From contig CBDUZS010000026.1 of NCBI GenBank assembly GCA_965371785.1, positions 1 through 34,755 of the forward strand: DNA of 34,755 bases, written 5' to 3'. A program made the position numbers and the translations under genes. Source of the stretch: an uncultured bacterium (GTDB lineage: Bacteria; Fermentibacterota; Fermentibacteria; Fermentibacterales; JCC-6). The notes beneath the pieces were generated by a model. It was not told the origin of the DNA and made no database searches. It saw only the letters and a program-made list of their open reading frames with translations. This document shows, one piece after another, positions 161-20,701 of this stretch (position 1 is its first letter; the number at the start of each line of letters is the position of its first letter).

Positions 161-2758
161 TCAGCTCGCCGCTTCCCCCCTGGTCGTGAACACCAGCTCT
201 CCATCCTTCGAGTCCAGCTCTATCCTTTCACCTGCGTGAACTATTCCTTCGAGTATCTGCCGAGCCAGCTCGTTCTGAACGTCCTTCTGCATCACCCTCT
301 TGAGCGGGCGGGCACCGTAAACGGGATCGTATCCGCGTTCGGCTATCAGGTCCATTGCAGCCGGTGTCGGCTCGATGACTATCTGTTGTGATTTCAGCAC
401 CTCGTTCAGGTACCTGAACTGGATCTCGACTATCTGCCTTATGTCCTCTCTGCTCAGAGAGCTGAAGACGATCACTTCATCTATTCTGTTCAGGAATTCG
501 GGTCTGAAGTGCTCCCTGAGCTCACCAAGGGCTCTTGATTTCAGCTCTTCGGCTGACAGCGTACCGGCCAGCTCGGCGATCCAGTCGCTCCCGATGTTGC
601 TGGTCATTATCACGACACTGTGCCGGAAGTTTACAGTCCTCCCCTGTCCGTCGGTGAGACGGCCGTCGTCGAGAATCTGCAGGAACACGTTGAAGACGGC
701 GGGATGAGCCTTCTCGATCTCATCGAAGAGGATTACTGAATAAGGCCTGCGCCTGACAGCCTCGGTCAGGTAGCCGCCCTCGTCGTATCCGACGTAGCCG
801 GGGGGAGCTCCTATCAGCCTGGAGACGGAGTGCTTCTCCATGAATTCGCTCATGTCTATCCTGACCAGGGCATTCTCATCGTCGAACAGAAAATCGGCAA
901 GTGAACGCGCCAGTTCCGTTTTTCCCACACCTGTAGGCCCCATGAAGATGAAGCTCCCGACGGGTCTGTCGGGATTCTGGACACCGGCTCTTGCCCTTCG
1001 AATCGCTTCCGAAACCACTGTTACGGCTTCATCCTGCCCGACAACCCTCTCATGCAGATCCTTCTCCATGTTGAGCAGCCGCATGCGCTCGCTCTCCAGC
1101 ATCCTGGCCACGGGAATTCCCGTCCATCTGGAGACAACACCAGCGATGTGCTCGGGGGTGATCTCCTCGGTGAGCATGGCGCCGTCCTCCTGAATCACTG
1201 CCAGTTTTTTCCGCGTCGAAGAGGACTCCTCTTCCAGCTCTCTTAGCTTTCCATAGCGTATCTCGGCAACCCTCTGGAGGTCTCCCTCCCTCTCGGCCTT
1301 CTTCTCGGAACTCTTTTCGTCCTCTATCTCACGGGCAAGTTCCCTTACCCTTTCTATCAGCTCCTTCTCGTTGAGCCATCTTACTTCGAGCGCACCGAGC
1401 TCCTCTTTCAGGTTGGCCAGATCTTCTTCGATCAGTCCCAGCTTCTGTTTCGAGAGCTTGTCCTTGTCACGCTTCAGCCCCTCACGTTCGATCTCGAGCT
1501 GAATGATCTTCCTGCGCACCTCGTCCACCTCTGCAGGCATGCTCTCTATCTCGATTCTGAGCCTGCTTGCGGCCTCGTCAACGAGATCGATCGCTTTGTC
1601 GGGCAGAAATCTGCCGCTGATGTACCGGTCTGACAGAGTGGCCGCGGCAATCAGTGCGGAATCCTGGATCTTGATTCCATGATGGACCTCGTATCTCTCC
1701 CGAAGTCCTCTGAGAATACTGATCGTGTCCTCGACGGATGGCGCTTCGACCAGGATCGGCTGGAAGCGTCTCTCGAGTGCTGCATCCTTTTCTATATGCT
1801 TGCGGTACTCATCAAGTGTCGTCGCTCCGATGGCATGTAGTTCACCCCTTGCGAGAGCGGGTTTGAGCATGTTCGCTGCATCCACGGCACCCTCGGCTGC
1901 CCCAGCGCCCACGAGTGTGTGCATCTCGTCTATGAAGAGTATGATCCTGCCTTCGGATGAAACGATTTCCGAAAGAACGGATTTCAACCTCTCCTCGAAC
2001 TCTCCCCTGTACTTCGCACCTGCGATGAGCGCGCCCATGTCCAGGGCCATCACACTCTTGTCCTTCAGGCTCTCTGGAACGTCTCCAGCTGCAATTCTTC
2101 CCGCCAGGCCTTCGACGATTGCCGTCTTTCCTACACCTGGTTCCCCTATCAAAACGGGATTGTTCTTTCTCCGACGCCCGAGGACCTGCATCGTCCTCCT
2201 GATCTCGTCATCCCTGCCGATCACAGGGTCCAGCTTCTCCTGCCTCGCAAGAGACGTGAGGTCCCTGGTGTACTTACTCAGAGCATCGTAGTGCTCCTCC
2301 GACGTTTCGGAGGTTACCCTCGTCGAACCCCTGACTTCGGCCAGGGCGGCTAGAAAACCCTTTTCATCGACTCCGGTCGAAGCGAGAGCTCCGGCTGCCT
2401 TCCCCCCTCCTGCCAGCACGGCCATGAAGAGGTGCTCCCTTGCGACGAAGTCGTCCTTCATCCTTGTGGCAATTGATCTGGACTCCCGCAGGATCTTCGC
2501 GAGCGCTGTGGACATGCCCGGTTCGGATCCCCCGCTGGACCTGGGCAGAGATGAGAGCTCCTCACCGATCCTTCTCTCCAGTTTGCCCCTGTCCACCTCC
2601 ATACGCTCCAGCACACCGTTGATCACTCCTTCGGGATCGCCGACAAGAGCCATTGCCAGGTGAAGTGGAGTTATCTCGGGGTTACCTGCGGTAAGAGAAA
2701 TCTGTTGTGCTTCCGAGATCGCTTCCCTTGATTTTATCGTAAATTTGTCGAGCTTCAT
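161..2758 (-). CDS. clpB: ATP-dependent chaperone ClpB (Hsp100, AAA+; two NBDs plus coiled-coil middle domain)
   Basis: 865-aa ORF. It has two Walker A motifs ([16 protein letters not shown]) and a long coiled-coil linker. The N-domain reads [14 protein letters not shown]... Confidence 0.95.
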
Positions 2759-3022
2759 TCAATTTCACTTCCTTTCGGTATACTTCAAAGCAAGAATCAC
2801 GCCACTGAGATCGGTTGACAGCTCCATGATACACTGCGCTATCTTGCCGTACTTATTTAGATTAAAGCGATTCGCAACAGCAAACCTGTTCCATTCTCGC
2901 AAGCAGCATGTCCTGTTGAGCCATAATGACACGCATAACGTAATACTCATCCTTCTTTACCATCAAGCCGCAAGGTGGTAGCTTTCCGACTGCGACAGCT
3001 AACCAAAACCGGAGGAAACCAA

Positions 3023-4012
3023 ATGGTAAAAGTCGGAATCGTCGGACTGGGGTACTGGGGACCGAACCTGTTGCGAAACATAATCGCTAACAGAAGATGC
3101 GAGAGCATCATCATCTGTGACAGCGATGCCGGCAGGTTGACCAGAATTTCAGAGAGATATCCTTCGCTCGAGAAGACAACGGAGTTTTCAGACCTGATAT
3201 CCAACAACGAACTGGATGCACTCGTGATTGCCACGGATGTCTCTTCTCACTATCCGCTTGCCAAGCAGGGTCTGGAAGCGGGAAAGCATGTTTTCGTAGA
3301 GAAGCCTTTTGCCGAGAGCACGGAAAAGGCGGAAGAGCTCGTCAGACTGGGCGATGAGAAGCAGCTGATCACAATGGTCGGCCACACCTTCCTCTTCTCG
3401 CCACCGGTTCTGAAAGTCAAGCAGATCATCGACAGCGGTGAACTGGGAGAGATCCGCTTCATCACTGCGAGCAGGGTCAACCTCGGACTCCATCAGAAAG
3501 ATGTCTCGGTTATCTGGGATCTGGCTCCACACGATTTCTCGATGATCTTCTACTGGCTCGGCGAGGATCCGGATCACGTGGAAGCCTTCGGGCACGACTA
3601 CGTGCTGAAGGGCATTCCCGATGTGGCATTCATCAATCTCGGCTTTCCCAGCGGAGTGATCTGCAACGTCCAGGTTGCATGGCTGGCACCATCCAAGCTG
3701 AGGAGAACGGTTATCGTCGGAAGCCGGAAGATGCTCGTGTACGACGACACACAGCCTTACGAAAAGATCAAGATCTTCGATACCGGTGTTGACATCAAGG
3801 AGCCACAGACTTTCGGTGAGTACCAGCTCACCTATCGAACCGGCTCGATCGTATCTCCCAAGCTGGACAGTTTCGAACCGCTTGCATCCGAGATGGAAGA
3901 GTTCCTGAGATGCGTGGAGACGGGAGACTCTCCCAGAACCAACGGGCGTAACGGTCTGAGTGTTGTCAGGGCTCTGGAAGCAGCTGATCGGAGTCTCAGA
4001 GAGAACGGATAG
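3023..4012 (+). CDS. Gfo/Idh/MocA family NAD(P)-dependent oxidoreductase (sugar-nucleotide dehydrogenase-like)
   Basis: MVKVGIVGLGYWGPNLL Rossmann motif and EKPFA motif. The internal ATG at 3023 is preceded by GGAGGA. It sits divergent to clpB. Confidence 0.85.
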   Translation: MVKVGIVGLGYWGPNLLRNIIANRRCESIIICDSDAGRLTRISERYPSLEKTTEFSDLISNNELDALVIATDVSSHYPLAKQGLEAGKHVFVEKPFAESTEKAEELVRLGDEKQLITMVGHTFLFSPPVLKVKQIIDSGELGEIRFITASRVNLGLHQKDVSVIWDLAPHDFSMIFYWLGEDPDHVEAFGHDYVLKGIPDVAFINLGFPSGVICNVQVAWLAPSKLRRTVIVGSRKMLVYDDTQPYEKIKIFDTGVDIKEPQTFGEYQLTYRTGSIVSPKLDSFEPLASEMEEFLRCVETGDSPRTNGRNGLSVVRALEAADRSLRENG

Positions 4013-5615: not shown

Positions 5616-6932
5616 TCAGCTTTCGGACATCCAGCAGCCCAGGGACTCGAGCGCCCTCTTACTGTATGCCGCTCTCTTCTCTCTTCTTCCCCTGCCTTTG
5701 ACCGTGGCAGGGAAAAGCCCGTAGTTGATGTTGCTGGGCTGGAACTCATGACCCGGGGCAGTAGTGACGTGGGAAAGGAGTGCTCCCAGGGCTGTCTCGC
5801 GAGGTGGCGGGACAGGTTCGACACCATCGAGGAAGGATGAGAGAAAATATCCGCAGAGCCATCCACTGGCCACTGATTCCAGGTAGCCCTCCACACCGGT
5901 TATCTGCCCGGCAAACGAAACACTCTCCCTCCCCCGCAGACGGAGCCAGGAATCCAGTATTGCGGGAGAGTTCAGGTAAGTATTCCTGTGCATGGAACCA
6001 AGTCTCAGGAAAACCGCCTTGCCGAGTCCAGGAATGCTTCGGAAGAGCCGTTTCTGGGCTGGATAGGTCAGTTGAGTCTGGAAACCCACGAGGTTCCAGG
6101 CAGAACCTTCTTTGTTCTCCATCCTCAGCTGAACGACTGCGAAAGGTCTCTCACCCGTACGGGGATCGATTAGTCCTACAGGCTTCATAGGACCGTGCGC
6201 CAGTGCCGCAGCACCACTCTCACCGATGACCTCTACCGGCATACACCCACTGAAATGTTTCTTCTTCTCGAATTCGCGGACCGGAACTCTCTCGGAAGAC
6301 AGCAGGGCATCGACGAATTGGAAATACTCCTCCTCCGACATCGGACAGTTGAGATAGGCTCCCTCTCCGCCGTCGTACCTCGACTGCAGAAAAGTAACCG
6401 ACCGATCGATGCCGTCACCCTCCACGATCGGAGCGAGTGCATCGTAGAAGTACAATTCGTCCGAACCGGTCAGGTTCGAGATTTCGAGAGCAAGCAGATC
6501 GGATGTGAGAGGGCCCGTGGCTACGATCTGGAATCGATCGTCTTCCAGATCGGTAACCTCTTCACGAATGAGCTCTATTCCCGGATTACGCTCTATCCTC
6601 TCGGTTATCTCGCTGCTGAAACCATGCCTGTCCACTGCAAGCGCACTCCCAGCGGGGACGGCATGTCCGAGGGCGACCGACAGCACGAAGGAGCCTGCCA
6701 TTTCCAGTTCAGATTTCAGCAGACCGGCAGCGTTTACAGGATCCGCGGAGCGGAAGGAATTGGAACAGACCAGCTCGGCAAGGTCTCCGGTTGTGTGAGC
6801 AGGAGTCATGGTTGCCGGACGCATTTCGAAGAGGACTACACGGAAACCACGCAGGGCCAGTTGCCAGGCTGCCTCGCAGCCGGCAAGACCACCTCCTATT
6901 ACCTTGACTTCAGGCTTTCCCACCGGTTTCAC
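5616..6932 (-). CDS. trmFO: Methylenetetrahydrofolate--tRNA-(uracil54-C5)-methyltransferase TrmFO (Gid)
   Basis: N-terminal KVIGGGLAGCEAAWQLA FAD-binding motif. It is 438 aa with a TrmFO-type architecture. Confidence 0.9.
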   Translation of the reverse strand: MKPVGKPEVKVIGGGLAGCEAAWQLALRGFRVVLFEMRPATMTPAHTTGDLAELVCSNSFRSADPVNAAGLLKSELEMAGSFVLSVALGHAVPAGSALAVDRHGFSSEITERIERNPGIELIREEVTDLEDDRFQIVATGPLTSDLLALEISNLTGSDELYFYDALAPIVEGDGIDRSVTFLQSRYDGGEGAYLNCPMSEEEYFQFVDALLSSERVPVREFEKKKHFSGCMPVEVIGESGAAALAHGPMKPVGLIDPRTGERPFAVVQLRMENKEGSAWNLVGFQTQLTYPAQKRLFRSIPGLGKAVFLRLGSMHRNTYLNSPAILDSWLRLRGRESVSFAGQITGVEGYLESVASGWLCGYFLSSFLDGVEPVPPPRETALGALLSHVTTAPGHEFQPSNINYGLFPATVKGRGRREKRAAYSKRALESLGCWMSES

Positions 6933-7195
6933 CCCCAGGGAAATCTACATCTGCTGAGGAGTATAATGTAAGCTGTACGGATAATCGGTCCCACCACCCG
7001 GGTGATCAAGGAGCCAACGTCTACAAACGCAGAAGACCTCGCAGTCTGCGCAGCGAATCCTATGGACGCAGATTTGGAGAGGGGCTATATCAAGACCCCG
7101 CTGGGCCTGCCCTGCAGGATATTTCCAGAAGTGGTTCAATTCAGCGCTGTGTGCGAAAAGTACGGTTGCTGGCTAAGATGTTCGGAGACTGAGTA

Positions 7196-8227
7196 ATGCG
7201 GATCCTTGTGGCTACAACTTACACTCTACCGGCCTATTCAGGTGGATGGACCACTCCGCTGGATCTTTTCGGAGACGAACACCAGGCAATGTACGTGGTC
7301 CGCAACTACCATGCCGGAACGAGTATCATTGAGGGAATCAGGTGTGTCGGTGCAGGCGCCGTCGGCAGGTTTGCCACCCCATGGAACAGGGCGGAAAAGT
7401 ACAGGCATGCCCTGGTTCAGAGATTGTTCCGCAACGCACTGAAAAGACACTTCCATAAGTTTCGGGCAGATTTCGTTCTCTGCCTGGATCCTGAAGCCGG
7501 CTATGCCGCCATGCATTCCGGACTCCCCTATGCCATGCGTTTCCATTCAAAATTGAGCCGGGTGGACCGGAAACATCCCTTTGACGATCTAATGGAGAAT
7601 GCGATTTTTGCCATTTGCTGCCAGGCAACGTACATCCCTGATATCGAGATCGTTCCCCACAATCAGGATCTCTCGAGATTCACATATCTGGAGAGCCCTT
7701 CCGCCGAAAGGGCGATTCTGCTCACCAGCATTGACAGTATCCACGAACCTGAGCTTTTCATCGAGGGAGTCATGCTCTCGAAGAGAATGAAAGGAGATAT
7801 CGTAGGTACGGGGGAGGATCGAAAGAAAATCGCAGCACTCTGCCGAAAGACCGGGGGGCGAGTCCGCTGCCTGTCACCTGTTCCCAGGCTGAAAGTACCT
7901 GCACTGCTCAATAACTATCAGGTGGGGGTTGCAACGGTCAGGAACATTTCACCGATCGTCTACCAGATGAAGGTCAACGCCTACATGGCTTCCGGTCTCT
8001 ACACACTGGCAAAGCCCTGGACCCACATAGCATCCGAAGCACCGGATCTGATCGGTGTCTTTACAACTGCCGGAGACCTGGCAAACCGTCTTGATTACCT
8101 GAGTGACAACTGGGCTGAAACACTGACAATCCGACGACAGGCCCGGGGCTGGATAAACGAGAACTACTCGGTGGAAATCCCGAGAAAACGCTTCAGAGAA
8201 ATACTCAGCGAGAAATTCTCGCCCTGA
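7196..8227 (+). CDS. Glycosyltransferase (GT-B fold, GT4-like)
   Basis: 343 aa, N-terminus MRILVATTYTLP. The C-terminal half carries a GT-B nucleotide-sugar-binding-like region. It sits beside the flippase and GT2 genes. Confidence 0.55.
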   Translation: MRILVATTYTLPAYSGGWTTPLDLFGDEHQAMYVVRNYHAGTSIIEGIRCVGAGAVGRFATPWNRAEKYRHALVQRLFRNALKRHFHKFRADFVLCLDPEAGYAAMHSGLPYAMRFHSKLSRVDRKHPFDDLMENAIFAICCQATYIPDIEIVPHNQDLSRFTYLESPSAERAILLTSIDSIHEPELFIEGVMLSKRMKGDIVGTGEDRKKIAALCRKTGGRVRCLSPVPRLKVPALLNNYQVGVATVRNISPIVYQMKVNAYMASGLYTLAKPWTHIASEAPDLIGVFTTAGDLANRLDYLSDNWAETLTIRRQARGWINENYSVEIPRKRFREILSEKFSP

Positions 8228-9779
8228 TCCTGTCCGCTACCTCTGACGATGCCCGTGCCAGGGTTGTGCTTCTCAGCACAATGAGAACCACCGTCATGAC
8301 CAGAATCCCACTGCCGGCATAGCAGAACAGCTGCAGTAATTTTGTGAAGGCGGGAGCTTCGGTTGAAAATGGCCAGAGGTGGATTGTCAACAGCGAGCCT
8401 GCAACAAGGAAGATGTTTGCGGAAAGAATCTTCAGCTGCTCTCCCACTACCAGCCGAAGCTGAAGGCCACCCATCTTCCTGGAGAGGGACCATGTCAGAT
8501 AGACGGTTTTAGCCGTTGACGTTGCCGTTGTCGCCAGCGCAAGCCCGCCAATCCCCAGTGGCCCCACCAGAATCAGATTCAGCAACACGTTTGCAACAAC
8601 ACCGAAAATACCGATGGTTACAGGTGTAGCCGAATCCTTCTGAGCATAAAAAGCCCTGGAGACAAGCGAGCCGATACCGAACTGGGCAAGCCAGGGGGCG
8701 TAAAAAGCCAGGGCATATCCGATGTACCGCGAATCCTCCCCGGTGAAGTTGCCTCTCTGAAAGAAAACGGAAACAACTGGAACCGCCAGAACGGTCAGGA
8801 GGGCGGCAGCAGGAAACATCACTAGCGACGTCGTGTTCAGGTTTCTTCTGAGGATGGCAAGTAACTTGTCCACCTTCCCTTTCGCCGCCTCAGCCGAGAA
8901 GCTCAGGTCCGCGAAGACCAGGAAGGGTGTGAAGACAACAGCAAGAACGATGTTCTTGATCCTGTTGGCATAGTCTATGGCCGTAATCGAGCTTACCGGC
9001 AGGAAAGAAGCCAGCATCTTGTCAGCAATGGGCGCAAGGAAACCTACAAACGTTCCTCCTACCACGGGAGCAGCCATCCTTGCGAGCTGCCCCATGAATG
9101 GATCCCTGGCAATGGAGGGGTTAACCTTGAAACCGCTTCTGTAACTCTGGACAAGCAGGAATACAAAGTCCGCCAGACCCCCTATCAGCATCGAAATCGG
9201 AAGGATTCTGATACCGATACTGCCGCGGACCACAAGAAGAACGGTAAGTGATACTGCAAGACCCAGAACTCCTGAAAGGGACAGGACAGTGAATCTTTTC
9301 TCGTACTTAATGAAATTCGCCAGTATCCCGTTGGTCGTTCTGAGGATCACGATAGGCAGCAGAATTCTGAAAAGGTTTGATGACAGTTCCAGCAGTTCCT
9401 GCGAGCCGCTGGGGCTTATTACTCTTACAAGAGTCCCGCTCGAGAACCAGAGAATGGAAACGAGTATGGAACTTGTAAGGACAAGCCAGGAAATGGTCTT
9501 GTTAACAAAGGCAACGGCTCCATCATGTCCTCTCTTCTCCATGACCCTGGAATAGATGGGAATGAAAGCCGAACCGAATGAATGTGCAACAACTTCCCTG
9601 ACCAGGAGGGGAAAGACCATGGCGATAGCCAGGGCATCGGTTTGCCAGTCTGCTCCGAAAATCGCTGTAATCTGGGCAAAACGAAAATAGGAAAGCAGCG
9701 CTATGAAAATACTGCTGGCTGAGAGTGCCGAAAGCCCGAGGAGTTTACTGTTCCCCGCCGGCCTGGGCTTTTCCGTCAT
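8205..9779 (-). CDS. MOP-superfamily oligosaccharide/lipid-linked glycan flippase (MurJ/MviN-like)
   Basis: About 14 TM helices. The N-terminus (MTEKPRPAGNSKLLGLSALSASSIFIALLSYFRFAQITAIFGA) is typical of MurJ/Wzx-type proteins. The ATG at 9777-9779 overlaps the upstream GT2 stop (ATGA). The 3' end overlaps the convergent GT gene by 23 nt. Confidence 0.8.
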   Translation of the reverse strand: MTEKPRPAGNSKLLGLSALSASSIFIALLSYFRFAQITAIFGADWQTDALAIAMVFPLLVREVVAHSFGSAFIPIYSRVMEKRGHDGAVAFVNKTISWLVLTSSILVSILWFSSGTLVRVISPSGSQELLELSSNLFRILLPIVILRTTNGILANFIKYEKRFTVLSLSGVLGLAVSLTVLLVVRGSIGIRILPISMLIGGLADFVFLLVQSYRSGFKVNPSIARDPFMGQLARMAAPVVGGTFVGFLAPIADKMLASFLPVSSITAIDYANRIKNIVLAVVFTPFLVFADLSFSAEAAKGKVDKLLAILRRNLNTTSLVMFPAAALLTVLAVPVVSVFFQRGNFTGEDSRYIGYALAFYAPWLAQFGIGSLVSRAFYAQKDSATPVTIGIFGVVANVLLNLILVGPLGIGGLALATTATSTAKTVYLTWSLSRKMGGLQLRLVVGEQLKILSANIFLVAGSLLTIHLWPFSTEAPAFTKLLQLFCYAGSGILVMTVVLIVLRSTTLARASSEVADRIRARISR

Positions 9780-10624
9780 TCTCCGCTCCGGGGAAGTCTG
9801 GGGGCGATCCCTCTGAGAACCGACTGCAATCCCAGGTAATATCCACTGACAGCTTCCGGGTTTATCGCTGCGTATACAAACAACCGTAGAATGCACTTCA
9901 TGATGATCAGTCTTCTGACAGCATCAGCATTGGAAGAATCGTGATTCCTGAAGAACTCGAGCATGCCCCAGTGAAAACAGGAAAGCCTGGTGGAAGTGGC
10001 TCTTTCTGAGCCCTGCCGCTGTTCATGAACGAACCTGCTTCTCTCACAGAGATCAACGTTCATTCCCAGCATTTTTGCTCTCGCGAAGAGATCCACATCC
10101 TCGAAGAAGAGTGGAAATCTGCTGCCGAATCCCTCCAGCTGAAGAAAATCATCCCGATGGATCAGAATCAGAGAGCCCTGAAGCCAGTTCATCCGGTCTC
10201 TCCGCCAGAGAGTTTCCGCAGGTTTGAATATCTGTGACCTGACCCAGTGGATTGTCGGCCATATCCCGGTGGAACGCATCGGCCTTCCGGAAGAATCCAC
10301 GGTTCGTCCCCCCGTAAGGCTGCCAGAGGAGTGATGATCCATGATAGCTCTCAGCGATTCACTGTTCTCAGGCAGAGTATCCGGATTGGTAATGAGTACA
10401 ACCGGGTCGTCGCATTCCCTGACTGCGCGATTTATCCCCAGGCCAAATCCAGTGTTACCCGTGAAGGGCAGTACTTTCACATTACCATTGATCAAAGCCG
10501 GAATGTTGTTGCCGTTATCGGATATCACACATGAGGCGCCGGTCTCTGACCATTCCCGTGCCCAGTTCCTGACAGCTTCCGGGTTTCCGTATGCAACGGT
10601 AACCACAGTTACCGGTAACGACAA
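9776..10624 (-). CDS. Glycosyltransferase family 2
   Basis: VTVVTVAYGNPE N-terminus with DxD-type acidic motifs (FFEDVD); a GT-A fold. Confidence 0.8.
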   Translation of the reverse strand: MSLPVTVVTVAYGNPEAVRNWAREWSETGASCVISDNGNNIPALINGNVKVLPFTGNTGFGLGINRAVRECDDPVVLITNPDTLPENSESLRAIMDHHSSGSLTGGRTVDSSGRPMRSTGIWPTIHWVRSQIFKPAETLWRRDRMNWLQGSLILIHRDDFLQLEGFGSRFPLFFEDVDLFARAKMLGMNVDLCERSRFVHEQRQGSERATSTRLSCFHWGMLEFFRNHDSSNADAVRRLIIMKCILRLFVYAAINPEAVSGYYLGLQSVLRGIAPRLPRSGE

Positions 10625-10824: not shown

Positions 10825-11763
10825 ATGACATTCCCGGAGAAAACTGCTCTTCCCTGCATTGGTGTGCTCCTCGTTAACTACAACCAGTGGGAAATTACGC
10901 GGAAGTGCGTGGAGTCTCTTCTTGAATCTCATGGAGTCCGTGTTGTCATAGGTCTTGTGGACAACAACTCCTCAGAGCCGACACCTGGATGGATAAGGGA
11001 TATGTCGGAGATCAGCTATTTCAGAAATCCGGGTAATTATGGTTTCATAGCCGGCAACATCAAGGCTTACGAAATGGTTATCAAACGGGATGTTGACTTT
11101 GTTATTCTGCTGAACAACGATACAGAAGTTGCACCGGATGCTCTTCATCTTCTCGTGACGCACTTCGAGAAACATCCCGACACAGGCCTCGCAACTCCAG
11201 TGATAACCTATGCCGAGGATAGAACTGTTGTCTGGCATGCTGGCGGGACCTTCATCCCCTGGCGAATGGGTGTGAAGCAGTTGTACAAAACAACTGCAGA
11301 TCTTCCGGAGAAGGCTGTTGAGGTCGATCAGATCTCCGGTTGCGCCATGATGATGCGGGTGGAGCTGTTCAAAAGGATAGGTTACCAGGATTCTGATCTA
11401 TTCATTTACCACGAGGATGTGGAACAGAGCCTCATGTCCTCTGAGATGGGGTTCAGGAACTACCTTGTCCCGAATGCCAGAGTTGTACACCATGTTTCCA
11501 TTACCGTAGGCGGTGTACTCTCTCCGTTTGCAGTTTACTTCACTCACAGAAACAGGTACATATTCGCAAATCGCAATCTGAAGGGGATGAACCTGTTTGC
11601 CTTCCGTTTCTACTACCTGGCCGTCACGCTGGCAAAAACGGTGATCTATCCCCTGAGGAAGTGTGGTAAACTAGTTTACTGGATGTGGCTCGGGCTGATG
11701 CATGGAGTGAGAAACAGACCGGACAAAAAACCGGATGGTCTTTTCCCCAAAGACACTGAATGA
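10825..11763 (+). CDS. Glycosyltransferase family 2 (rhamnosyltransferase/WbbL-like)
   Basis: GVLLVNYNQWEITRKCVESL, LVDNNS and ILLNNDTEV motifs of the GT2 family. Confidence 0.85.
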   Translation: MTFPEKTALPCIGVLLVNYNQWEITRKCVESLLESHGVRVVIGLVDNNSSEPTPGWIRDMSEISYFRNPGNYGFIAGNIKAYEMVIKRDVDFVILLNNDTEVAPDALHLLVTHFEKHPDTGLATPVITYAEDRTVVWHAGGTFIPWRMGVKQLYKTTADLPEKAVEVDQISGCAMMMRVELFKRIGYQDSDLFIYHEDVEQSLMSSEMGFRNYLVPNARVVHHVSITVGGVLSPFAVYFTHRNRYIFANRNLKGMNLFAFRFYYLAVTLAKTVIYPLRKCGKLVYWMWLGLMHGVRNRPDKKPDGLFPKDTE

Positions 11764-11800
11764 CAGTATCTGCCGTCCTCCGTTTACAGGGGGATGCCAG

Positions 11801-12439
11801 TCAGTTGTGTGACGGTTCAGCGAACAGGGATTTAATGGCTCCATGAGTCGTCTGCACTAATCCCAGGCTGCCCTCGAATCGGAGCATGACCACAAGACTG
11901 GACATCGTGCCGCTTACATCCTCGTACTCCCCTGAGATGGATCTTATCGTACCGGTGTTCCAGTGCCATGAGTAAAGGCACTCATCCTCGGTTTCCCCGT
12001 CGCTCCAGAGGAACTCTATCAGGAGATTGTCTTCTCCGTTGTACCAGTACGGCGTATCCAGTTCGAATACTTCCCATTCACCCGGATCGGGTGAAAGGGT
12101 AATGGAATCCCTTTCGAAGATCGTGGTCCTGGAACCTGGGATGTAGTTGTCATCGAAGACGGGCACGAGCACGTCATTCCCGGTAAGCCCCATGCAGATC
12201 TCGAAATCAAAGAAAATCCCGACCGCCGGATTCCCAGGAGAGTACCTCTTGCAGGCGATACTCTCCACGGTCATGGCGTTGCCCATCTCCTCATCGAGCA
12301 CTACCACCAGGTAGCGAAGGGACTCAGCTCAACCGATTCCCATCGGATTGCACCCCGAAACCTCTGGATTGCCGACGACGATCTCGGTGCAGAAACCTGC
12401 GGAAGCGATGAACAGCATCAGCAGAGTCAGTATTTTCAT
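11801..12439 (-). CDS. Secreted protein of unknown family, candidate selenoprotein (212 codons; in-frame TGA at codon 37, plus strand 12329..12331)
   Basis: ATG at 12439 (minus) is preceded by GGTGAT. It encodes MKILTLLMLFIASAGFCTEIVVGNPEVSGCNPMGIG, then TGA, then continues in the same frame as AESLRYLVVVLDEE... into the 168-aa ORF from the six-frame track. It is a paralog of 12464..13111. Its terminal stop is also TGA. Confidence 0.6.
12298..12317 (-). promoter_or_regulatory. SECIS-like RNA hairpin 11 nt downstream of the in-frame UGA of paralog 1
   Basis: Minus-strand RNA ucgcuacc-UGGU-gguagugc has a 7-bp stem including one G.U pair. 19 of 20 nt match the element in paralog 2. The spacer to the UGA is 11 nt (12318..12328). 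Confidence 0.5.
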
Positions 12440-12463
12440 CCCGGGATCACCAATCCCGGATCG

Positions 12464-13111
12464 TCAGTTCGACTGCAGGATCTTGATACCTGCAAAAGTG
12501 GTTGACTCGAGATCCAGGTAGTCACCTACAAGTTTCAACCTGCTCATCGCACTGGAAAGGCTGCCGGTAGGGACTGAAGGCGCGCCTGCTGCAGTCGCAG
12601 CAACAGCCCTGATTATTCCCGTATCCCAGCCGTACGTGTAGAAGCTCTGGTTGTCGACGGGAGATGACCAGGTCACTTCGATGAGGAGATTTCCCTGGCC
12701 AAACCAGTAAGTGAACGGCGTGTCGAGCTGAATCGTGCACCATTCACCGGCGCTGCCGCTGAAAACGTATGTATAACTGTCGAATACCTGTGTCCTGCTT
12801 CCCTCGACGTAGTTGTCTTCGAATGTGGAAACGAGCTGATCGCTTGCGCAGTATCCCATGTAGATCTTCACATCGTTGAATTCGGCAGACGGGTCAGCTG
12901 CGGGATGCACCTGCACTCCGACGTCGGTAATGTGAAGGTTGCCCCCGATCTCTTCGTCCAGCACTACCACCAGGTAGCGCATGGCCTCGAATCAAGATCC
13001 GCAGTAGGGATAGCTGCTTGCGGGACCGCCTTCCGGTCCGATGATCACTTCATCGGCCAGAACGACCGAGAAGAGTGTGACGAGCAAAAGGACTCCAACG
13101 GTGCTTCTCAT
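12464..13111 (-). CDS. Secreted protein of unknown family, candidate selenoprotein (215 codons; in-frame TGA at codon 40, plus strand 12992..12994; Cys-Gly-Ser-[UGA] motif)
   Basis: ATG at 13111 (minus) is preceded by AGGAGAGGGG. It encodes MRSTVGVLLLVTLFSVVLADEVIIGPEGGPASSYPYCGS, then TGA, then FEAMRYLVVVLDEE... (the 172-aa track ORF) in the same frame. The domain motifs FEDNYV.GSRT, GEW, LDTP and NLLIE are shared with paralog 1. Confidence 0.6.
12961..12980 (-). promoter_or_regulatory. SECIS-like RNA hairpin 11 nt downstream of the in-frame UGA of paralog 2
   Basis: Minus-strand RNA gcgcuacc-UGGU-gguagugc has an 8-bp stem including one G.U pair. The spacer to the UGA is 11 nt (12981..12991). 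Spacing and sequence match the paralog 1 element. Confidence 0.5.
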
Positions 13112-13324
13112 ACTGCCCCTCTCCTTATTTCCCACTTGTTTGATATGTATTGATTTGCGAAATTAGAATAACGAGGCAATGACATAAGGTCAACCTTCCC
13201 TCTGTGATGCGTTGACAAAGACCTTCTGCGAATGACGAACAGTCATTTTCAGCACTACAAAGGTAGGAAATTGAACTCCGGTTGTTTATCTTACACGGGT
13301 ATTTTTCTTGCCGGGGAGCCCGAT

Positions 13325-15208
13325 ATGTGTGGAATTGCAGGAATCGTTTCAAAGGACATGCCTGGAGAGGAAATCCTCGCGAGGCTGAACAGAATGTCCT
13401 GTATACAGAAGCACAGGGGGCCGGATGAAACTAGAGCGCTTCTTCTACAGAAACCCTTTCGAGCCGGTTTCGGCTTCACGAGGCTCTCGATCCTCGATCT
13501 CGAAACGGGTATGCAGCCGATCACGTCCAGGGCAGACGGCACGACGATCATGTGCAATGGACAGGTATACAATTACTGTGAACTGAAATCACAGGTCAGT
13601 GATGAAGATTTCGTCTCGAGGGGTGACATCGAGGTTGCCCTTCATCTCTACAGAAAGCACGGAACCGATTTCCTCGGCATGCTGAACGGCATGTATGCGG
13701 GAGCAATCTATGATCCCCTGGAGAGAAAACTCCTTCTCTTCAGAGACCGCTTCGGGATCAAGCCGCTCTACTACGCAGTGATTGGCAGCAGTTTCGTCTT
13801 CTGTTCCGAAATCCGCCCGATCCTTGACGGGTTCGGAATGAGAGCAGAGCTCGATACCGCCCTGCTCCCCGTCTTCTTCACGTACAGATACATCCCCGGG
13901 GAACAGACGATGTTCAGGGGAATAAGGCGCCTTCCGCCAGGCTCTTATCTCGAGCTGGACCCGGACTCTGGTGACATCGGAATCAGCAGGTACTGGGAGT
14001 ATCTGCCGGGGAGGCATGTAACTTCGCAGACAATCGATGACGCTTCCGACAGGTTCGTCTGTCTGTTCAGGGACGCCGTGAAGATCAGAATGCGTTCCGA
14101 CGTCGAGGTGGGCACTTTTCTGTCGGGCGGCATCGATTCCTCGGCGGTTACCACGGAGAGCGCCGTTCATAATCCTGATATCAGGATGTTCACTATCTCA
14201 TACGGCGAGAAGACGTACAACGAACTCCCCGCAGTCGACCGCTTCGTAAGGAAGAACTCCCCCGCACTCGCTAATGCCCGGCACTTCACCAGCCTCTGCT
14301 CGAGGGAATCGATGGCACGGCTGCCTTCGATAGTGAAGGCAATGGAAGAACCTTTGTCACTTGGAACGCTTCTGCCCACGGATCAGATATGCAGCAGTGC
14401 TTCGGAGCACCTGAAAGTTGTCATGACCGGGGAAGGAGCGGATGAGATATTCGCAGGTTACCGGAAATTCATGCTTGAAATGGCTGCTGCCGACTACGGA
14501 CAACTCTCTGCCGGGGAGAGAACGGACCTGGAGAGTAAGTATCCGGAGCTGATTCCGTACATGGAAATAAGGGATCCGGATCCGGTCAGACGGTTCGTGC
14601 AGAGCGAGGAGCTGTTCTCAGCCACAGAGCTGGAATCCCTCCTCGGGGAGGCACCGGAGCACTCTCTGTATCCTCGCGATGCCATTCCCGCTCTCACTGG
14701 AGGAGTGCACCCGCTCAACGCGGCAATAGCGATGGAATGCCAGTCAAGGCTGCCAAATTACGTCATTCTGCGTCTGGACAAACTCTCCATGCGGCATTCA
14801 CTGGAGACGAGAACGCCTTTCCTCGATTACAGGCTGGCCGAATTCGCAGCGGAGCTGCCCGTTCACCTGAAAGCAGACCTCGCTCTGGACAGGGGAAAGA
14901 GTATCTGCAGGCATGCCTTTCACCGCAGCTCGATTCTCGACCAGGAAACAGCCTTCAGAAGGAAGAAACCGTTTACGATTCCCATGGCTGACTGGCTTGC
15001 TTCACCCGACACACTGCCGGATCCACTTCAGGATATCCTCCTGGGATCGGTTGTGGGGCAGCAGGGAATCCTCGATGCTGAACACGTTCGTAATCTGGTG
15101 TCAGATGTTTCCACTAAAGGTGTTGGGCCTGAAACGCTGGTCTCTGGAGCGGACAGAGTTTTTGCTGTGCTCGTCTTCTCACTCTGGTATGAAGAGTTCT
15201 TTCAATGA
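13325..15208 (+). CDS. asnB: Asparagine synthetase (glutamine-hydrolysing) family amidotransferase, AsnB/WbpS-like
   Basis: N-terminal MCGIAGI (class II glutamine amidotransferase nucleophile Cys2). The SGGIDSS PP-loop lies in the synthetase domain. The ATG is preceded by GGGGAG. Confidence 0.85.
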   Translation: MCGIAGIVSKDMPGEEILARLNRMSCIQKHRGPDETRALLLQKPFRAGFGFTRLSILDLETGMQPITSRADGTTIMCNGQVYNYCELKSQVSDEDFVSRGDIEVALHLYRKHGTDFLGMLNGMYAGAIYDPLERKLLLFRDRFGIKPLYYAVIGSSFVFCSEIRPILDGFGMRAELDTALLPVFFTYRYIPGEQTMFRGIRRLPPGSYLELDPDSGDIGISRYWEYLPGRHVTSQTIDDASDRFVCLFRDAVKIRMRSDVEVGTFLSGGIDSSAVTTESAVHNPDIRMFTISYGEKTYNELPAVDRFVRKNSPALANARHFTSLCSRESMARLPSIVKAMEEPLSLGTLLPTDQICSSASEHLKVVMTGEGADEIFAGYRKFMLEMAAADYGQLSAGERTDLESKYPELIPYMEIRDPDPVRRFVQSEELFSATELESLLGEAPEHSLYPRDAIPALTGGVHPLNAAIAMECQSRLPNYVILRLDKLSMRHSLETRTPFLDYRLAEFAAELPVHLKADLALDRGKSICRHAFHRSSILDQETAFRRKKPFTIPMADWLASPDTLPDPLQDILLGSVVGQQGILDAEHVRNLVSDVSTKGVGPETLVSGADRVFAVLVFSLWYEEFFQ

Positions 15209-16152
15209 TGGAGGAAGGCAGAATCCTGGATCACTACACAAACGGCCTTCTTTCTCTCCTAAGCGGCGGCTCGGCTGATGGACCGCGAACGTACGGCTTC
15301 GAGTACGAATTCCTTCCCGGGCAAATCCTGGATCTCAACGATATGAATGCCATCTACGAGTTCCTTCGCTCGATGGAATTCAGCGGGAAAGACGGGATCT
15401 TCTCGGGCTGTGCCGGAATGGGGATTGCGTTCGAACCGGGAGGACAGATCGAGTTCAGCAGTATTCCCCTTACCGCGACGGACCATGATGTGTTCACCTG
15501 TCAGCTCGAGAGGATCAGAAACGTCCTTGCGGGACTGCGAAACAAGCTGGGAATCGAGTACATCGGGACGGCATACGTGCCAGGCCGTGAGTCTGCCCCG
15601 CTCGTCCTCCTGAGCAGGCGTTACCGGCTGCTCCATGAACGTTTGGGCATATCCGGAACCAGGGGCATGGAGATGATGAAGGGAACGGCAGCAGTCCACC
15701 TGCACATACGGGTGAAGAAACCATCTGAGCTGATCCCGTTGTTCGATGTAATGCTGACCCTGTCGAGAGAAAAGGATTTCATGCTCTCGCCACAGAGAAG
15801 GGATATCTGGGAGAACACCGACGACAGCAGGTGTGGTCTGCCATTCACAGACGTATCCGGTTTCGCGACTCCCGAAGACCTTCTGAAGGGACTGGTCAGG
15901 TTCGTTCTGGACGCGGCGGAACTGCAATCGGGACGCCGGTTCGGAGATCTGGAGAACGTGACCTTTGATGATTTTCTCAACCACATGACCACCATCTTCA
16001 CGGACATCAGACTGAACCTGAAGGGCCCATCGGTTGAACTGAGAACTCCCGACAGCCTTCCTCTCGACAAATTTCCCGATCTCTGGCATACGTTCGTTTC
16101 CCGCGCAGAGAAGCACATGCAGGACTGGCAGGACAAGGTCACAAGTATTTAG
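15205..16152 (+). CDS. Glutamate-cysteine-ligase family 2 (GCS2/YbdK-like) carboxylate-amine ligase
   Basis: N-terminal YGFEYEF acidic motif and HLHIRV motif resemble the GCS2 fold. The ATGATG start overlaps the asnB-like stop (ATGA). The family assignment is tentative. Confidence 0.5.
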   Translation: MMEEGRILDHYTNGLLSLLSGGSADGPRTYGFEYEFLPGQILDLNDMNAIYEFLRSMEFSGKDGIFSGCAGMGIAFEPGGQIEFSSIPLTATDHDVFTCQLERIRNVLAGLRNKLGIEYIGTAYVPGRESAPLVLLSRRYRLLHERLGISGTRGMEMMKGTAAVHLHIRVKKPSELIPLFDVMLTLSREKDFMLSPQRRDIWENTDDSRCGLPFTDVSGFATPEDLLKGLVRFVLDAAELQSGRRFGDLENVTFDDFLNHMTTIFTDIRLNLKGPSVELRTPDSLPLDKFPDLWHTFVSRAEKHMQDWQDKVTSI

Positions 16153-16213
16153 ATTGTGCTGCAGACAGCCCCTGAACTGAATATCAACGAAAGTGGAAAA
16201 GGAAGTACCCCGT

Positions 16214-17887
16214 ATGGCTGCCCCTGGAATGGAAGCAACCGATTTCATCAGATCAATTGTCGAACATGATGTACGGAACGGCAAGCACGATGGCCGAGTC
16301 CACACACGGTTCCCTCCCGAACCGAATGGATGCATGCACATCGGGCACGCAAAGGCTATCTGTCTGGATTTCAGTATTGCCACGGAGTTCGGGGGACTCT
16401 GCAATCTGAGGTTCGATGACACGAACCCGACGGGAGAGAACCCCGAATACGTCGAATCGATAAAGAAGGATATCCGATGGCTGGGATTCGACTGGGGGAA
16501 CCGCCTCTTCTACGCTTCAGACTACTTCGACAGGATGTACATGCTTGCCGAAAAGCTCATCGAGAAGGGAAGCGCATACGTCTGCGATCTCTCTCCGGAG
16601 GAGGTCCGGGAACACAGGGGAACTCTAACCGAGCCCGGAAGGAACAGCCCTAACAGAGATCGGTCGATCGAGGAGAACCTGGATCTCTTCAGAGGGATGC
16701 GGGCAGGGAAATTCGAAGAGGGTTCGCGTACTCTCAGAGCGAAAATCGACATGTCCCATCCCAATATGAACATGAGGGATCCTGCTATTTACAGGATTCT
16801 CTCGGACAGTCACCACAGGACAGGTGAACGGTGGTCTATCTACCCCATGTACGACTACGCACATTGCCTCGAGGACTCGATAGAGGAAATAACACATTCG
16901 CTGTGTTCGCTCGAATTCGAGGATCACAGACCTCTCTACGACTGGTTCCTCGATCAACTCGACATCTTCCATCCGCAGCAGATCGAATTCGCAAGGCTCA
17001 ATCTCACGTACACTATCATGAGCAAGAGACACCTCAGGCGGCTTGTCGAAGAAGGCTGCGTCAACGGTTGGGACGACCCACGGATGCCCACGCTGTCCGG
17101 ACTGAGACGAAGGGGAGTCTCGCCCCGCTCCATCAGGAATTTCATCTCCAAGATCGGCCTTGCCAAGAGAGACAGTGTCGTGGACATGGCTCTGTTCGAG
17201 TACTGCATCAGGGAAGACCTCAACAGAAGCGCACCGCGGGTCATGGGTGTTCTCGACCCCCTCAGGCTGGTAATAGACAATTACCCCGAGGATCGGATCG
17301 AGGAATTCGATTTCATCAACAATCCAGAGGACGAATCTGCGGGAACCAGAAAGGTCCCCTTCTCCAGAGTGCTCTACATCGAGCGGGATGACTTCATGGA
17401 GGACCCCCCCCGAAAATTCTTCAGGCTTGCCCCGGGGAGGGAGGTCCGTCTCAGGTACGCCTACATGATCACCTGCAGGAGCGTGATCAGAGATGAATCC
17501 GGAAACATCACAGAACTCCGCTGTACGTATGATCCTGACACCCGGGGCGGGAACGCGCCCGACGGCAGGAAGGTCAGAGGTACTCTTCACTGGGTATCGG
17601 CATCACATTCGGTGAGCGCAGAAGTCAGACTGTTCGACAGGCTTTTCACAGTTGAGAATCCTCTGACGGATGAGAACCTGATCGACTTCATCAATCCTGA
17701 TTCCCTCGTCGTCCTGAAGGACTGCCGTGTCGAACACTGGCTGAAGAATGCGGTTCAGGGTGAAGTGTTCCAGTTCGAGCGCAAGGGTTACTTCTGTGTC
17801 GATGAGGATTCCTCCCCGGACGGTCTTACATTCAACAGGACCATCTCCCTCAGGGATACATGGGCCAGGATCAGAGGAAAGAAGTAA
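16214..17887 (+). CDS. glnS: Glutaminyl-tRNA synthetase
   Basis: [16 protein letters not shown] (HIGH motif), TIMSKR (KMSKS motif) and near-colinear similarity to E. coli GlnRS throughout. The ATG at 16214 is preceded by AAGGAAG. Confidence 0.95.
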
Positions 17888-19903: not shown

Positions 19904-20701
19904 ATGGCTGCCACCATCTTCTACTTCACCGGAACCGGAAATTCGCTTGCCGCAGCACGAAGAATCGGAGAGAACCTGGGTGGCTGCTCCCTGATTCCGA
20001 TCGCATCCATCGTCGGACAGAAGACCAGTGGGACAGACGTTACGGGGCTGGTTTTCCCGCTCTATTTCTGCGGGCTTCCGAAAATAGTGTCCAGATTCGC
20101 CCGGCAGCTCGAACTGGATCAATCCGAATACACCTTTGCGGTTGTAACCAGAGGGGGAGGTCCGAGCAGAGCCCTGACGCAGCTCAGGAAGATCTTCGGT
20201 GGGAAGGATGGGAAGCTCGACGCTGGTTTCCTGGTGAACATGCCCGGCAACTACACTCCACTCCGGGATGTGTTGCCGCAGGAGAAGCTGAAAAAAGTCC
20301 TGACCGATGCCGAGAACAAGCTGGATGAGATCAGTGGAATAGTGAGCAGGCGGGAAAGCGCAATGGACAGGGAGAATCCCCTGTCGCGGCTGATAGGACG
20401 GGAAATCTATCACTACGTGATCGACACGATCAACACCCGTGACGAGAAATTCCACCTGACGGAGGGATGCACTTCCTGCGGTATTTGCGCTGAGGTCTGT
20501 CCCGTCGGGAATATCACCATGGAGAGTGGTCACCCTGAGTGGCACGGGAATTGCGAGCAGTGCTTCGCCTGTCATCATTTCTGCATCGAGCAGGTAATCC
20601 AGTTCGGGCGAAAAACTGCCAAGCGCGGCAGGTATCATCATCCCGAGATCAGGTACGACGATATCTCGAGACAGCGCATCGGTATAGCAGAACAATACTA
20701 A
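19904..20701 (+). CDS. EFR1-family ferredoxin (flavodoxin-like domain fused to a 4Fe-4S ferredoxin domain)
   Basis: N-terminal IFYFTGTGNS flavodoxin-like motif. The C-terminus carries CTSCGICAEVCP plus a second Cys cluster, CEQCFACHHFC. A GGAGG RBS precedes the start. Confidence 0.8.
   Translation: MAATIFYFTGTGNSLAAARRIGENLGGCSLIPIASIVGQKTSGTDVTGLVFPLYFCGLPKIVSRFARQLELDQSEYTFAVVTRGGGPSRALTQLRKIFGGKDGKLDAGFLVNMPGNYTPLRDVLPQEKLKKVLTDAENKLDEISGIVSRRESAMDRENPLSRLIGREIYHYVIDTINTRDEKFHLTEGCTSCGICAEVCPVGNITMESGHPEWHGNCEQCFACHHFCIEQVIQFGRKTAKRGRYHHPEIRYDDISRQRIGIAEQY

Follow-up and report, generated by a model that had tools for sequence, protein, structure and literature searches.

Tandem genes with a conserved in-frame UGA point to an exported selenoprotein family in Fermentibacteria

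The 34,755-nt stretch analysed here (hereafter the window; contig CBDUZS010000026.1, from an uncultured bacterium of the Fermentibacterota) carries on its minus strand two tandem paralogous genes, each consisting of a signal peptide, one in-frame TGA and a domain of about 170 amino acids (aa). The upstream gene, paralog 2 (12464..13111, minus strand), starts with an ATG at 13111, terminates at 12466..12464 and contains no other stop in frame except an internal TGA at codon 40 (12992..12994, minus strand); its translation gives 215 codons plus the terminal TGA. The downstream gene, paralog 1 (11801..12439, minus strand), runs from an ATG at 12439 to a stop at 11803..11801 and comprises 212 codons plus the terminal TGA, again with a single internal stop, a TGA at codon 37 (12329..12331, minus strand). 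Both were read as complete putative selenoprotein genes, in which selenocysteine (Sec, or U in motifs) would lie in a C-G-S-U motif in paralog 2 and in a GCxPxGIG-U motif in paralog 1, where the nearest cysteine is six residues upstream (SGCNPMGIG-U). The conceptual products of 215 and 212 aa are 36–37% identical to each other and have the motifs RYLVVVLDEE, F(E/D)DNY, GEW, LDTP and NLLIE in common. A preliminary description of this DNA, made from the sequence alone, had reported one TGA per frame at codons 37 and 40 followed by open frame, the residues C-G-S before the TGA of paralog 2 and about one third of residues shared between the paralogs, and our reading of both translations agrees on each count.

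A Shine–Dalgarno (SD) sequence, AAGGAG, lies 9 nt before the ATG of paralog 2 (13121..13126, minus strand, as read from the sequence), whereas that of paralog 1 is weak (GGTGA); the earlier statement that the ATG of each gene has a good SD sequence held for paralog 2 only. Because the ATG of paralog 1 is only 24 nt past the stop of paralog 2, the two genes are probably co-transcribed. Upstream of the pair we noted a weak sigma-70-like promoter match, TTGACC-17-TATTCT (13165..13193, minus strand; 9 of 12 positions), which is a candidate only, as the number of promoter matches did not exceed the shuffled expectation. The spacer between the genes (12440..12463, minus strand), CGATCCGGGATTGGTGATCCCGGG, contains by eye an imperfect inverted repeat, TCCGGGA / TCCCGGG, around the weak SD of paralog 1, and this repeat might modulate coupled translation of the pair. 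TGA is also the main normal stop codon in the window, where it ends 14 of the 21 long open reading frames (ORFs), including both paralogs. This rules out genome-wide reassignment of UGA, which the preliminary description had judged unlikely.

Homologues of the pair were collected by a one-genome-per-species scan, which gave 26 loci and, with the window, about 27 Fermentibacteria loci (individual loci and proteins are denoted by L and P numbers). All loci that carry a taxon name belong to Fermentibacteria (Hyd24-12, Aegiribacteria or Sabulitectum), and a few are labelled only 'uncultured bacterium'. We recovered 43 copies of the family from this set, and an in-frame TGA was present at every Fermentibacteria locus examined. 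In all 41 copies with upstream sequence the TGA occupies the identical column, and neither another stop codon (TAA or TAG) nor a sense codon ever takes its place; at their ends these 41 genes differ in stop codon (18 TGA, 14 TAG and 9 TAA). C-x-x stands before the TGA in 34 of the 41; in the paralog 1 type the sequence is G-C-x-P-x-G-I-G-TGA, and a single copy has TGA-C. Both flanks are conserved: the 18–20 mature residues 5' of the TGA are 60–80% identical between orthologues, compared with 40–59% for the domain that follows it. Thirteen loci retain the tandem pair, with the paralog 1-type orthologue downstream of the paralog 2 type, and paralog 2-type orthologues with the same layout were found at L001, L004, L006, L007 and L009. 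On a 45-kb contig with a 55%-identical homologue, for example, a single frame encodes a signal peptide, AVIIGPGDGPASSYPFCGS, TGA and FSAMRYQVVVLDEE, and is followed by a second paralogue that reads ...SGCAPIGIG, TGA, SSSLHYQ....

Public gene calls do not represent these genes as single frames. Paralog 2 is reduced to 12464..12982 (P0001), and a protein search returned 16 homologues, all called at 169–174 aa with starts just past the TGA position. In the public calls for the Sec forms (P0001–P0016, among them P0014, NCBI KAQ97_03050), the gene is split into ORFs of 36–38 and 160–176 aa or its first part is dropped; at L001 the two pieces are 9875..9991 and 10001..10522, and at L033 the pair has become four (2186..2296, 2306..2827, 2824..2934 and 2962..3462). 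Database entries for the Sec-form genes consequently describe shortened hypothetical proteins of the cytoplasm.

A profile search of 1.84 billion representative proteins yielded 946 matches with an E-value of ≤0.001, of which we examined the best 150. About 54 of these 150 are short single-domain proteins whose called starts are scattered just past the TGA position (MRYQ, VVVL, MALE and others), as expected for truncated calls. Eight others are full-length homologues of 201–209 aa (P0146, P0171, P0173, P0178, P0196, P0212, P0246 and P0268), and in a MAFFT alignment all eight have cysteine exactly on the TGA column, as in PFCGD-C-AASMRYQ aligned with YPYCGS-TGA-FEAMRY. One of them is annotated as Candidatus Fermentibacteraceae, and a search seeded with it revealed a clade of about 24 clusters with PFC(G/A)xC. 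Because the cysteine homologues align Cys to the TGA column, the CxxU motif corresponds to CxxC. Sec and Cys forms stand in a ratio of about 6 to 1 among clusters at 50% identity.

The remaining matches among the best 150 are multi-domain extracellular proteins, either with three repeats of the domain or of 1,000–3,000 aa, with CBM96, disaggregatase, PKD and Big domains. In these relatives the homologous counterpart of the pre-TGA segment (PFxG...RYQ) runs on into the domain without a break; the domain therefore cannot begin after the TGA. The Sec column in the multi-domain proteins is occupied by A, S, T, V, G or N, and a Cys or Sec residue at this site is an innovation of the single-domain Fermentibacteria subfamily. 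The same beta-sandwich domain recurs two to seven times in P0139, P0143, P0153, P0154, P0183, P0187 and others, which are lipoprotein-like proteins of about 565 aa or giant (1,000–3,000 aa) extracellular CBM96/disaggregatase/PKD/Big proteins. The repeats keep a YPFxG...(R/H)YQxLY start and have no Cys at the Sec column; they make up a sizeable domain family without a Pfam entry.

In each of the 41 TGA-containing copies, the codon is followed by an 8-bp hairpin of the form GC(G/A)CUA(C/U)C-(A/U)GGN-G(G/A)U(A/G)G(U/C)GC, which resembles a selenocysteine insertion sequence (SECIS) and whose stem begins 12 nt after the UGA with zero length variation. In paralog 2 the hairpin (12961..12980, minus strand) is GCGCUACC-UGGU-GGUAGUGC, 11 nt past the UGA, with a folding energy of -13.9 kcal/mol (z-score -4.0). 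That of paralog 1 (12298..12317, minus strand), (U)CGCUACC-UGGU-GGUAGUG(C), has 7 bp in the same register (-9.8 kcal/mol, z-score -3.4). Across the family alignment 94.8% of cells are paired, with 6–8 of the 8 pairs formed in each copy. One pair changes from C-G to U-A in six sequences, a compensatory substitution, pairing drops sharply when the register is shifted, and the core of the hairpin is also recovered by RNAalifold. Codon choice within the stem is strongly skewed. For the stem arginine (position +5), 29 of 29 copies use CGC, a codon that accounts for 15% of arginine codons elsewhere in these genes; GTA encodes the central valine (+9) in 26 of 34 copies but makes up 12% of valine codons elsewhere; and GTC or GTT, although they make up 58% of valine codons elsewhere, never occur at the stem valine codons +8 to +10. 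The hairpin is under selection at the RNA level. As a control we examined five Cys-form genes (TGC or TGT at the site), which pair only 3–4 of 8 positions in the same register. The two regions that the preliminary description had singled out for a SECIS search each contain the conserved hairpin, at an 11-nt spacing after the TGA and missing from the Cys forms. Between the UGA and the apical loop lie 19 nt; bacterial SECIS elements reportedly have 16–37 nt there (PMC10778597).

Genes for Sec synthesis and decoding were found in the lineage. Queries with E. coli SelA and SelB matched a Hyd24-12 contig (UBA5074, L010) 7 kb downstream of its gene pair, and the SelA encoded there is 49% identical to that of E. 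coli. In the same region from another sample (L033), a protein with the Pfam SelA domain stands beside one with GTP_EFTU, Beta-barrel_SelB and WHD_3rd_SelB domains. A search seeded with the L033 SelA gave five named entries among the best 120 matches, all of them from Fermentibacteria; most of the entries are nameless. In Aegiribacteria MLS_C, an rnf-selA-selB region on LQBI01000032 (L041) and a family gene on LQBI01000034 (L026) belong to the same metagenome-assembled genome (MAG). The gene order nrdR, rnfCDGEAB, selA, selB is common to Hyd24-12 (L033 4082..13248) and Aegiribacteria MLS_C (L041 4012..13266), with SelA proteins about 60% identical, a pattern suggesting that the Sec trait has passed vertically through the phylum.

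We consider it very likely that both genes encode single polypeptides in which the internal UGA is decoded as selenocysteine, as the preliminary description had proposed; the conserved TGA, the cysteine homologues, a hairpin specific to the TGA forms and the presence of selA and selB in the lineage all argue for it. A number of observations weigh on the other side. Of the Sec genes that had been suggested for a search, the lineage has selA and selB, in one case on the contig of a pair, but selD and tRNA-Sec were not found: ARAGORN detected no tRNA-Sec in the window or in about 40 loci (about 0.6 Mb), E. coli SelD as a tblastn query gave no match in the loci searched with it, and the window itself holds no Sec machinery genes. 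With only some 20 kb covered for each genome, the absence of selD and tRNA-Sec carries no weight. No Rfam model of a bacterial SECIS or tRNA-Sec matched, either at gathering thresholds on the whole window or at E ≤10 on 11750..13200, where only noise was returned. The covariation in the hairpin is modest, with double changes at one pair and three pairs invariant, and its conservation is partly confounded with that of the RYQVVV peptide that it encodes. The GU dinucleotide of the SECIS loop contacts SelB in E. coli and Moorella; here the fourth loop position is not always U, and the dinucleotide is not strictly kept. Finally, the modelled fold (below) is not of an oxidoreductase kind, which leaves the functional part of the proposal weak, and a neighbourhood of ArsR, CcdA and thioredoxin genes occurs in only 5–6 loci and is absent from the window.

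The absence of selD and tRNA-Sec from the loci examined (about 20 kb per genome) would also suit programmed read-through without selenocysteine, in which the UGA is read as Trp, Cys, Gly or Arg, either by near-cognate decoding that the hairpin stimulates or by a suppressor tRNA particular to the lineage; hairpins downstream of stop codons can promote read-through in other systems. We consider this improbable. Homologues with a sense codon at the site have Cys (all eight full-length proteins and the clade of about 24 clusters) and never Trp, Gly or Arg, the motif is a classical CxxU/CxxC pair, and the position and G-rich tetraloop of the hairpin fit a bacterial SECIS. Furthermore, TGA is the main ordinary stop, and selA and selB, for which we know of no other role, are conserved in the lineage and occur on the same contig. 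A different explanation would take the gene calls at face value: each locus would hold two genes, one for an exported leader of 36–39 aa, closed by the TGA, and one for a protein of about 170 aa that stays in the cytoplasm and is made from an independent start or by stop-restart. Public calls do give ORFs of 36–38 and 160–176 aa, and paralog 2 and 15 other copies have an ATG four codons past the TGA. However, that codon is ATG in only 16 of the 41 copies (CTG, CTT, CTC, AAC, ATT, ATA or GCC in the others), no SD sequence precedes the downstream ATG, the starts called for the short forms are scattered (MRYQ, VVVL, MALE and others), and paralog 1 has no ATG in the first 14 codons past its TGA, which bears out the earlier remark that it lacks a nearby restart codon. 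Neither frame nor spacing varies, the stop is TGA without exception, the Cys homologues are continuous across the site, and the segment ahead of the TGA supplies strands to the domain in the P0171 model and adjoins it directly in the multi-domain relatives. We therefore reject stop-restart, which the preliminary description had already noted not to fit paralog 1, and regard two separate genes as highly improbable. Nothing beyond the stop codon itself favours parallel nonsense pseudogenes or an assembly or sequencing artefact. Forty-one copies, drawn from separate assemblies, samples and sequencing projects, have the same TGA, both sides are strongly conserved as protein, and no start codon, signal peptide or terminal stop is damaged; the earlier judgement that pseudogenes are very unlikely can accordingly be sharpened, to a chance that we consider negligible.

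With the UGA read as selenocysteine, translation would start at the ATG and produce a Sec-type signal peptide (that is, for the general secretion pathway) followed by about 18–20 mature residues. At UGA codon 40 or 37, the 8-bp hairpin with its (A/U)GGN tetraloop, which lies inside the ORF and is encoded by the R-Y-(Q/L)-V-V-V codons, would recruit SelB–GTP–Sec-tRNA(Sec). Selenocysteine would be inserted and translation would continue to the real stop, which in the window genes is again UGA but without a hairpin. The preprotein would then be exported and cleaved to a mature protein of about 190–195 aa, predicted to be a single beta-sandwich of the galactose-binding, carbohydrate-binding module (CBM) or phage receptor-binding type, whose second loop would carry (F/W)-C-x-x-U in paralog 2 or C-x5-U in paralog 1. 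The C-terminal TFGxIK motif, common to other exported Fermentibacteria proteins, would probably serve surface sorting or anchoring. A selenenylsulfide or selenolate in the loop could support extracytoplasmic redox chemistry or metal(loid) binding, and in some genomes the reducing power may come from a neighbouring CcdA and periplasmic thioredoxin under an ArsR-type regulator.

Export is predicted for both proteins. The signal peptide of paralog 2 (13055..13111, minus strand), read from the sequence as MRSTVGVLLLVTLFSVVLA, has a predicted cleavage site VLA|DE, and that of paralog 1 (12389..12439, minus strand) is MKILTLLMLFIASAGFC. By inspection all 41 copies have a basic n-region, a hydrophobic core and a small-x-small site. 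The preliminary description had called both signal peptides typical, and by inspection they are, although the site it gave for paralog 1, ASA|GF, is uncertain: alignment with orthologues (LSA|EVTVG) would place cleavage at GFC|TE. Modelled alone, the post-TGA domain is a beta-sandwich with a predicted local distance difference test (pLDDT) score of 66.6. An AlphaFold model of the full-length Cys homologue P0171 is again a beta-sandwich (pLDDT 89.1, predicted template modelling score 0.82), in which residues 17–47, the CxxC included, form confident strands and loops of the sandwich. The fold is thus predicted to be a beta-sandwich of the binding-module type and not thioredoxin-like, and no thioredoxin-type Pfam or NCBIfam model matched the read-through products of the window.

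The family ends in a (S/T)x(F/W)GxIK motif that recurs at the extreme C terminus of unrelated ORFs in these loci, which suggests a lineage-specific surface sorting or anchoring signal. In the extended form (S/T)x(F/W)GxIKxx(F/L)-end, it also terminates unrelated Fermentibacteria ORFs, some of them CBM96-like, at L008 18621..19490 (minus strand), L011 8614..9267 (plus) and 1910..2809 (minus), L012 19948..20490 (minus), L021 1827..2465 and 3397..3756 (both minus), L039 5574..6878 (plus) and 6888..7544 (minus), and L005 7921..8559 (minus). The most likely role of the family, which we infer only, would be that of a binding module exposed at the surface whose C-x-x-U loop carries out redox chemistry outside the cytoplasm or binds metal(loid)s. 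Rather unlikely, in our judgement, is the more specific idea that Sec is no catalytic residue of an oxidoreductase fold but sits in the conserved ligand-binding loop (PFxG...) of an extracellular, TFGxIK-anchored, CBM-like or receptor-binding sandwich, which would make the protein a selenium-dependent surface binding or capture module with the tandem paralogues as a heteromeric pair; metal(loid)s, polysulfides and thiol-containing surface polymers are speculative examples of its ligands. One might further speculate that slow Sec decoding at codon 37–40 acts as a built-in pause that aids translocon targeting as the signal peptide exits the ribosome.

The pair in the window is flanked by envelope-polysaccharide genes, with a MurJ gene, a glycosyltransferase family 2 (GT2) gene and an AsnB-like gene among its neighbours. 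The neighbouring genes lie at 8205..9896 (minus strand) and at 10825..11763, 13232..15208, 15205..16152 and 16193..17887 (all plus strand), and the types represented are a flippase of the MurJ type, a GT2 glycosyltransferase, an amidotransferase resembling asparagine synthase, a ligase resembling GCS2 and a class I Glu/Gln-tRNA synthetase. Neither a redox partner nor a sel gene lies near the pair in the window, and no neighbour is universally conserved across the loci compared. In five genomes a cluster with ArsR, an ArsP_1 permease, thioredoxin and CcdA is located 0.3–7 kb from the pair, and at L001 ArsR occurs alone, in a gene that overlaps the start of the pair. The cluster is divergent and encodes ArsR (HTH_5), an ArsP_1 permease, Thioredoxin_3, a signal-anchored thioredoxin (CIPC) and a CcdA/DsbD-like protein; it spans L010 6713..9739 (equivalent to L033 1..2044) and is also present at L011, L008, L013 and L017. 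It could be a partner in reductant supply or metal response. Because it lies near the pair in few loci and not in the window, we offer the redox-partner idea as a hypothesis only.

An in-house SECIS-pattern scan of the collected loci returned the family, mostly noise and one further plausible selenoprotein. This second, unrelated candidate, in a Fermentibacteria MAG (L013 19072..20071, minus strand, TGA at 19972..19970), would be a 332-aa protein with a signal peptide, the sequence RTVLFEYFTQTG-TGA-GTCYSSW (UxxC) and a type IX secretion system (T9SS) Por_Secre_tail domain; beyond the T9SS tail it has no Pfam or NCBIfam match. Its homology to a 336-aa protein (L036 2412..3422) extends over the TGA; that protein reads ...FTNCGCSPCW, with Cys on the TGA, and its gene lies 16 nt upstream of that for P0171, a Cys-form member of the present family. 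A GCAGCU-GGUC-AGCUGU hairpin stands 13 nt past the TGA of the candidate.

If the Sec reading is correct, it would describe a selenoprotein family apparently confined to the candidate phylum Fermentibacterota (Hyd24-12), which is common in anaerobic digesters and sediments, and would place Sec in a non-thioredoxin, binding-module fold outside the cytoplasm. It would also suggest a selenium requirement in this uncultured group, which may help cultivation. The annotation error is systematic: with the Sec forms cut short and an N-terminal ORF of 36–39 aa split off, the proteins are hidden both as exported proteins and as selenoproteins. The uniform hairpin provides a clean phylum-specific SECIS model that could be used to look for the rest of the Fermentibacteria selenoproteome.

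From the sequences and models available, this appears to be a new exported, beta-sandwich selenoprotein family restricted to the phylum. In Pfam-A and NCBIfam 20.0, neither the read-through products (with U as C) nor the Cys homologue P0171 found anything better than E = 0.06, in keeping with the earlier remark that the family could not be placed. None of the 119 families in a 2026 inventory (PMC13188914, Table 1) matched by Pfam or NCBIfam models, a comparison that did not include the cd-series models. In the literature searched, we found no paper linking Fermentibacteria or Hyd24-12 to selenoproteins, and the family may stand in a database or supplement that we have not read.

The predicted fold has structural counterparts at only 5–12% sequence identity in the beta-sandwich modules of Bxb1 gp29, phi812 DUF4815, the CBM of the acetylxylan esterases PbeAcXE and FjoAcXE, and PHR domains; galactose-binding-like, CBM and phage receptor-binding modules differ in that none is known with Sec or CxxC in this loop. 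A selenoprotein that is a 22-strand outer-membrane barrel is likewise a non-thioredoxin protein of the cell envelope, with F-C-x-x-U compared with (F/W)-C-G-S-U here, but it differs in fold and size and there is no NCBIfam match to it, and the likeness, judged by the table description, is confined to the motif. Decoding would follow the usual bacterial route. As in E. coli fdhF, the UGA is within the ORF, a hairpin follows 11 nt after it, the loop contains GG(U), and selA and selB are present; 11 nt is the hairpin spacing of the minimal fdhF SECIS. The present hairpin differs from that of fdhF: its 8-bp helix is perfect, carries a tetraloop and lacks a bulged U, its sequence is unrelated and has no Rfam match, and its binding by SelB is predicted only. 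The 19 nt from UGA to loop in this family fall within the published range of 16–37 nt (PMC10778597). Exported thiol-disulfide selenoproteins, namely DsbA-like and DsbG-like proteins, a TlpA-family UGC protein and a thiol:disulfide interchange protein (PMC13188914, Table 1), resemble the present family, as predicted, in signal peptide, extracytoplasmic location and a Sec and Cys three residues apart, and also in having Cys-only homologues in the lineage. They have a thioredoxin fold with UxxC at a helix N terminus, whereas the proteins described here are predicted to be beta-sandwiches with CxxU in a loop near the mature N terminus.

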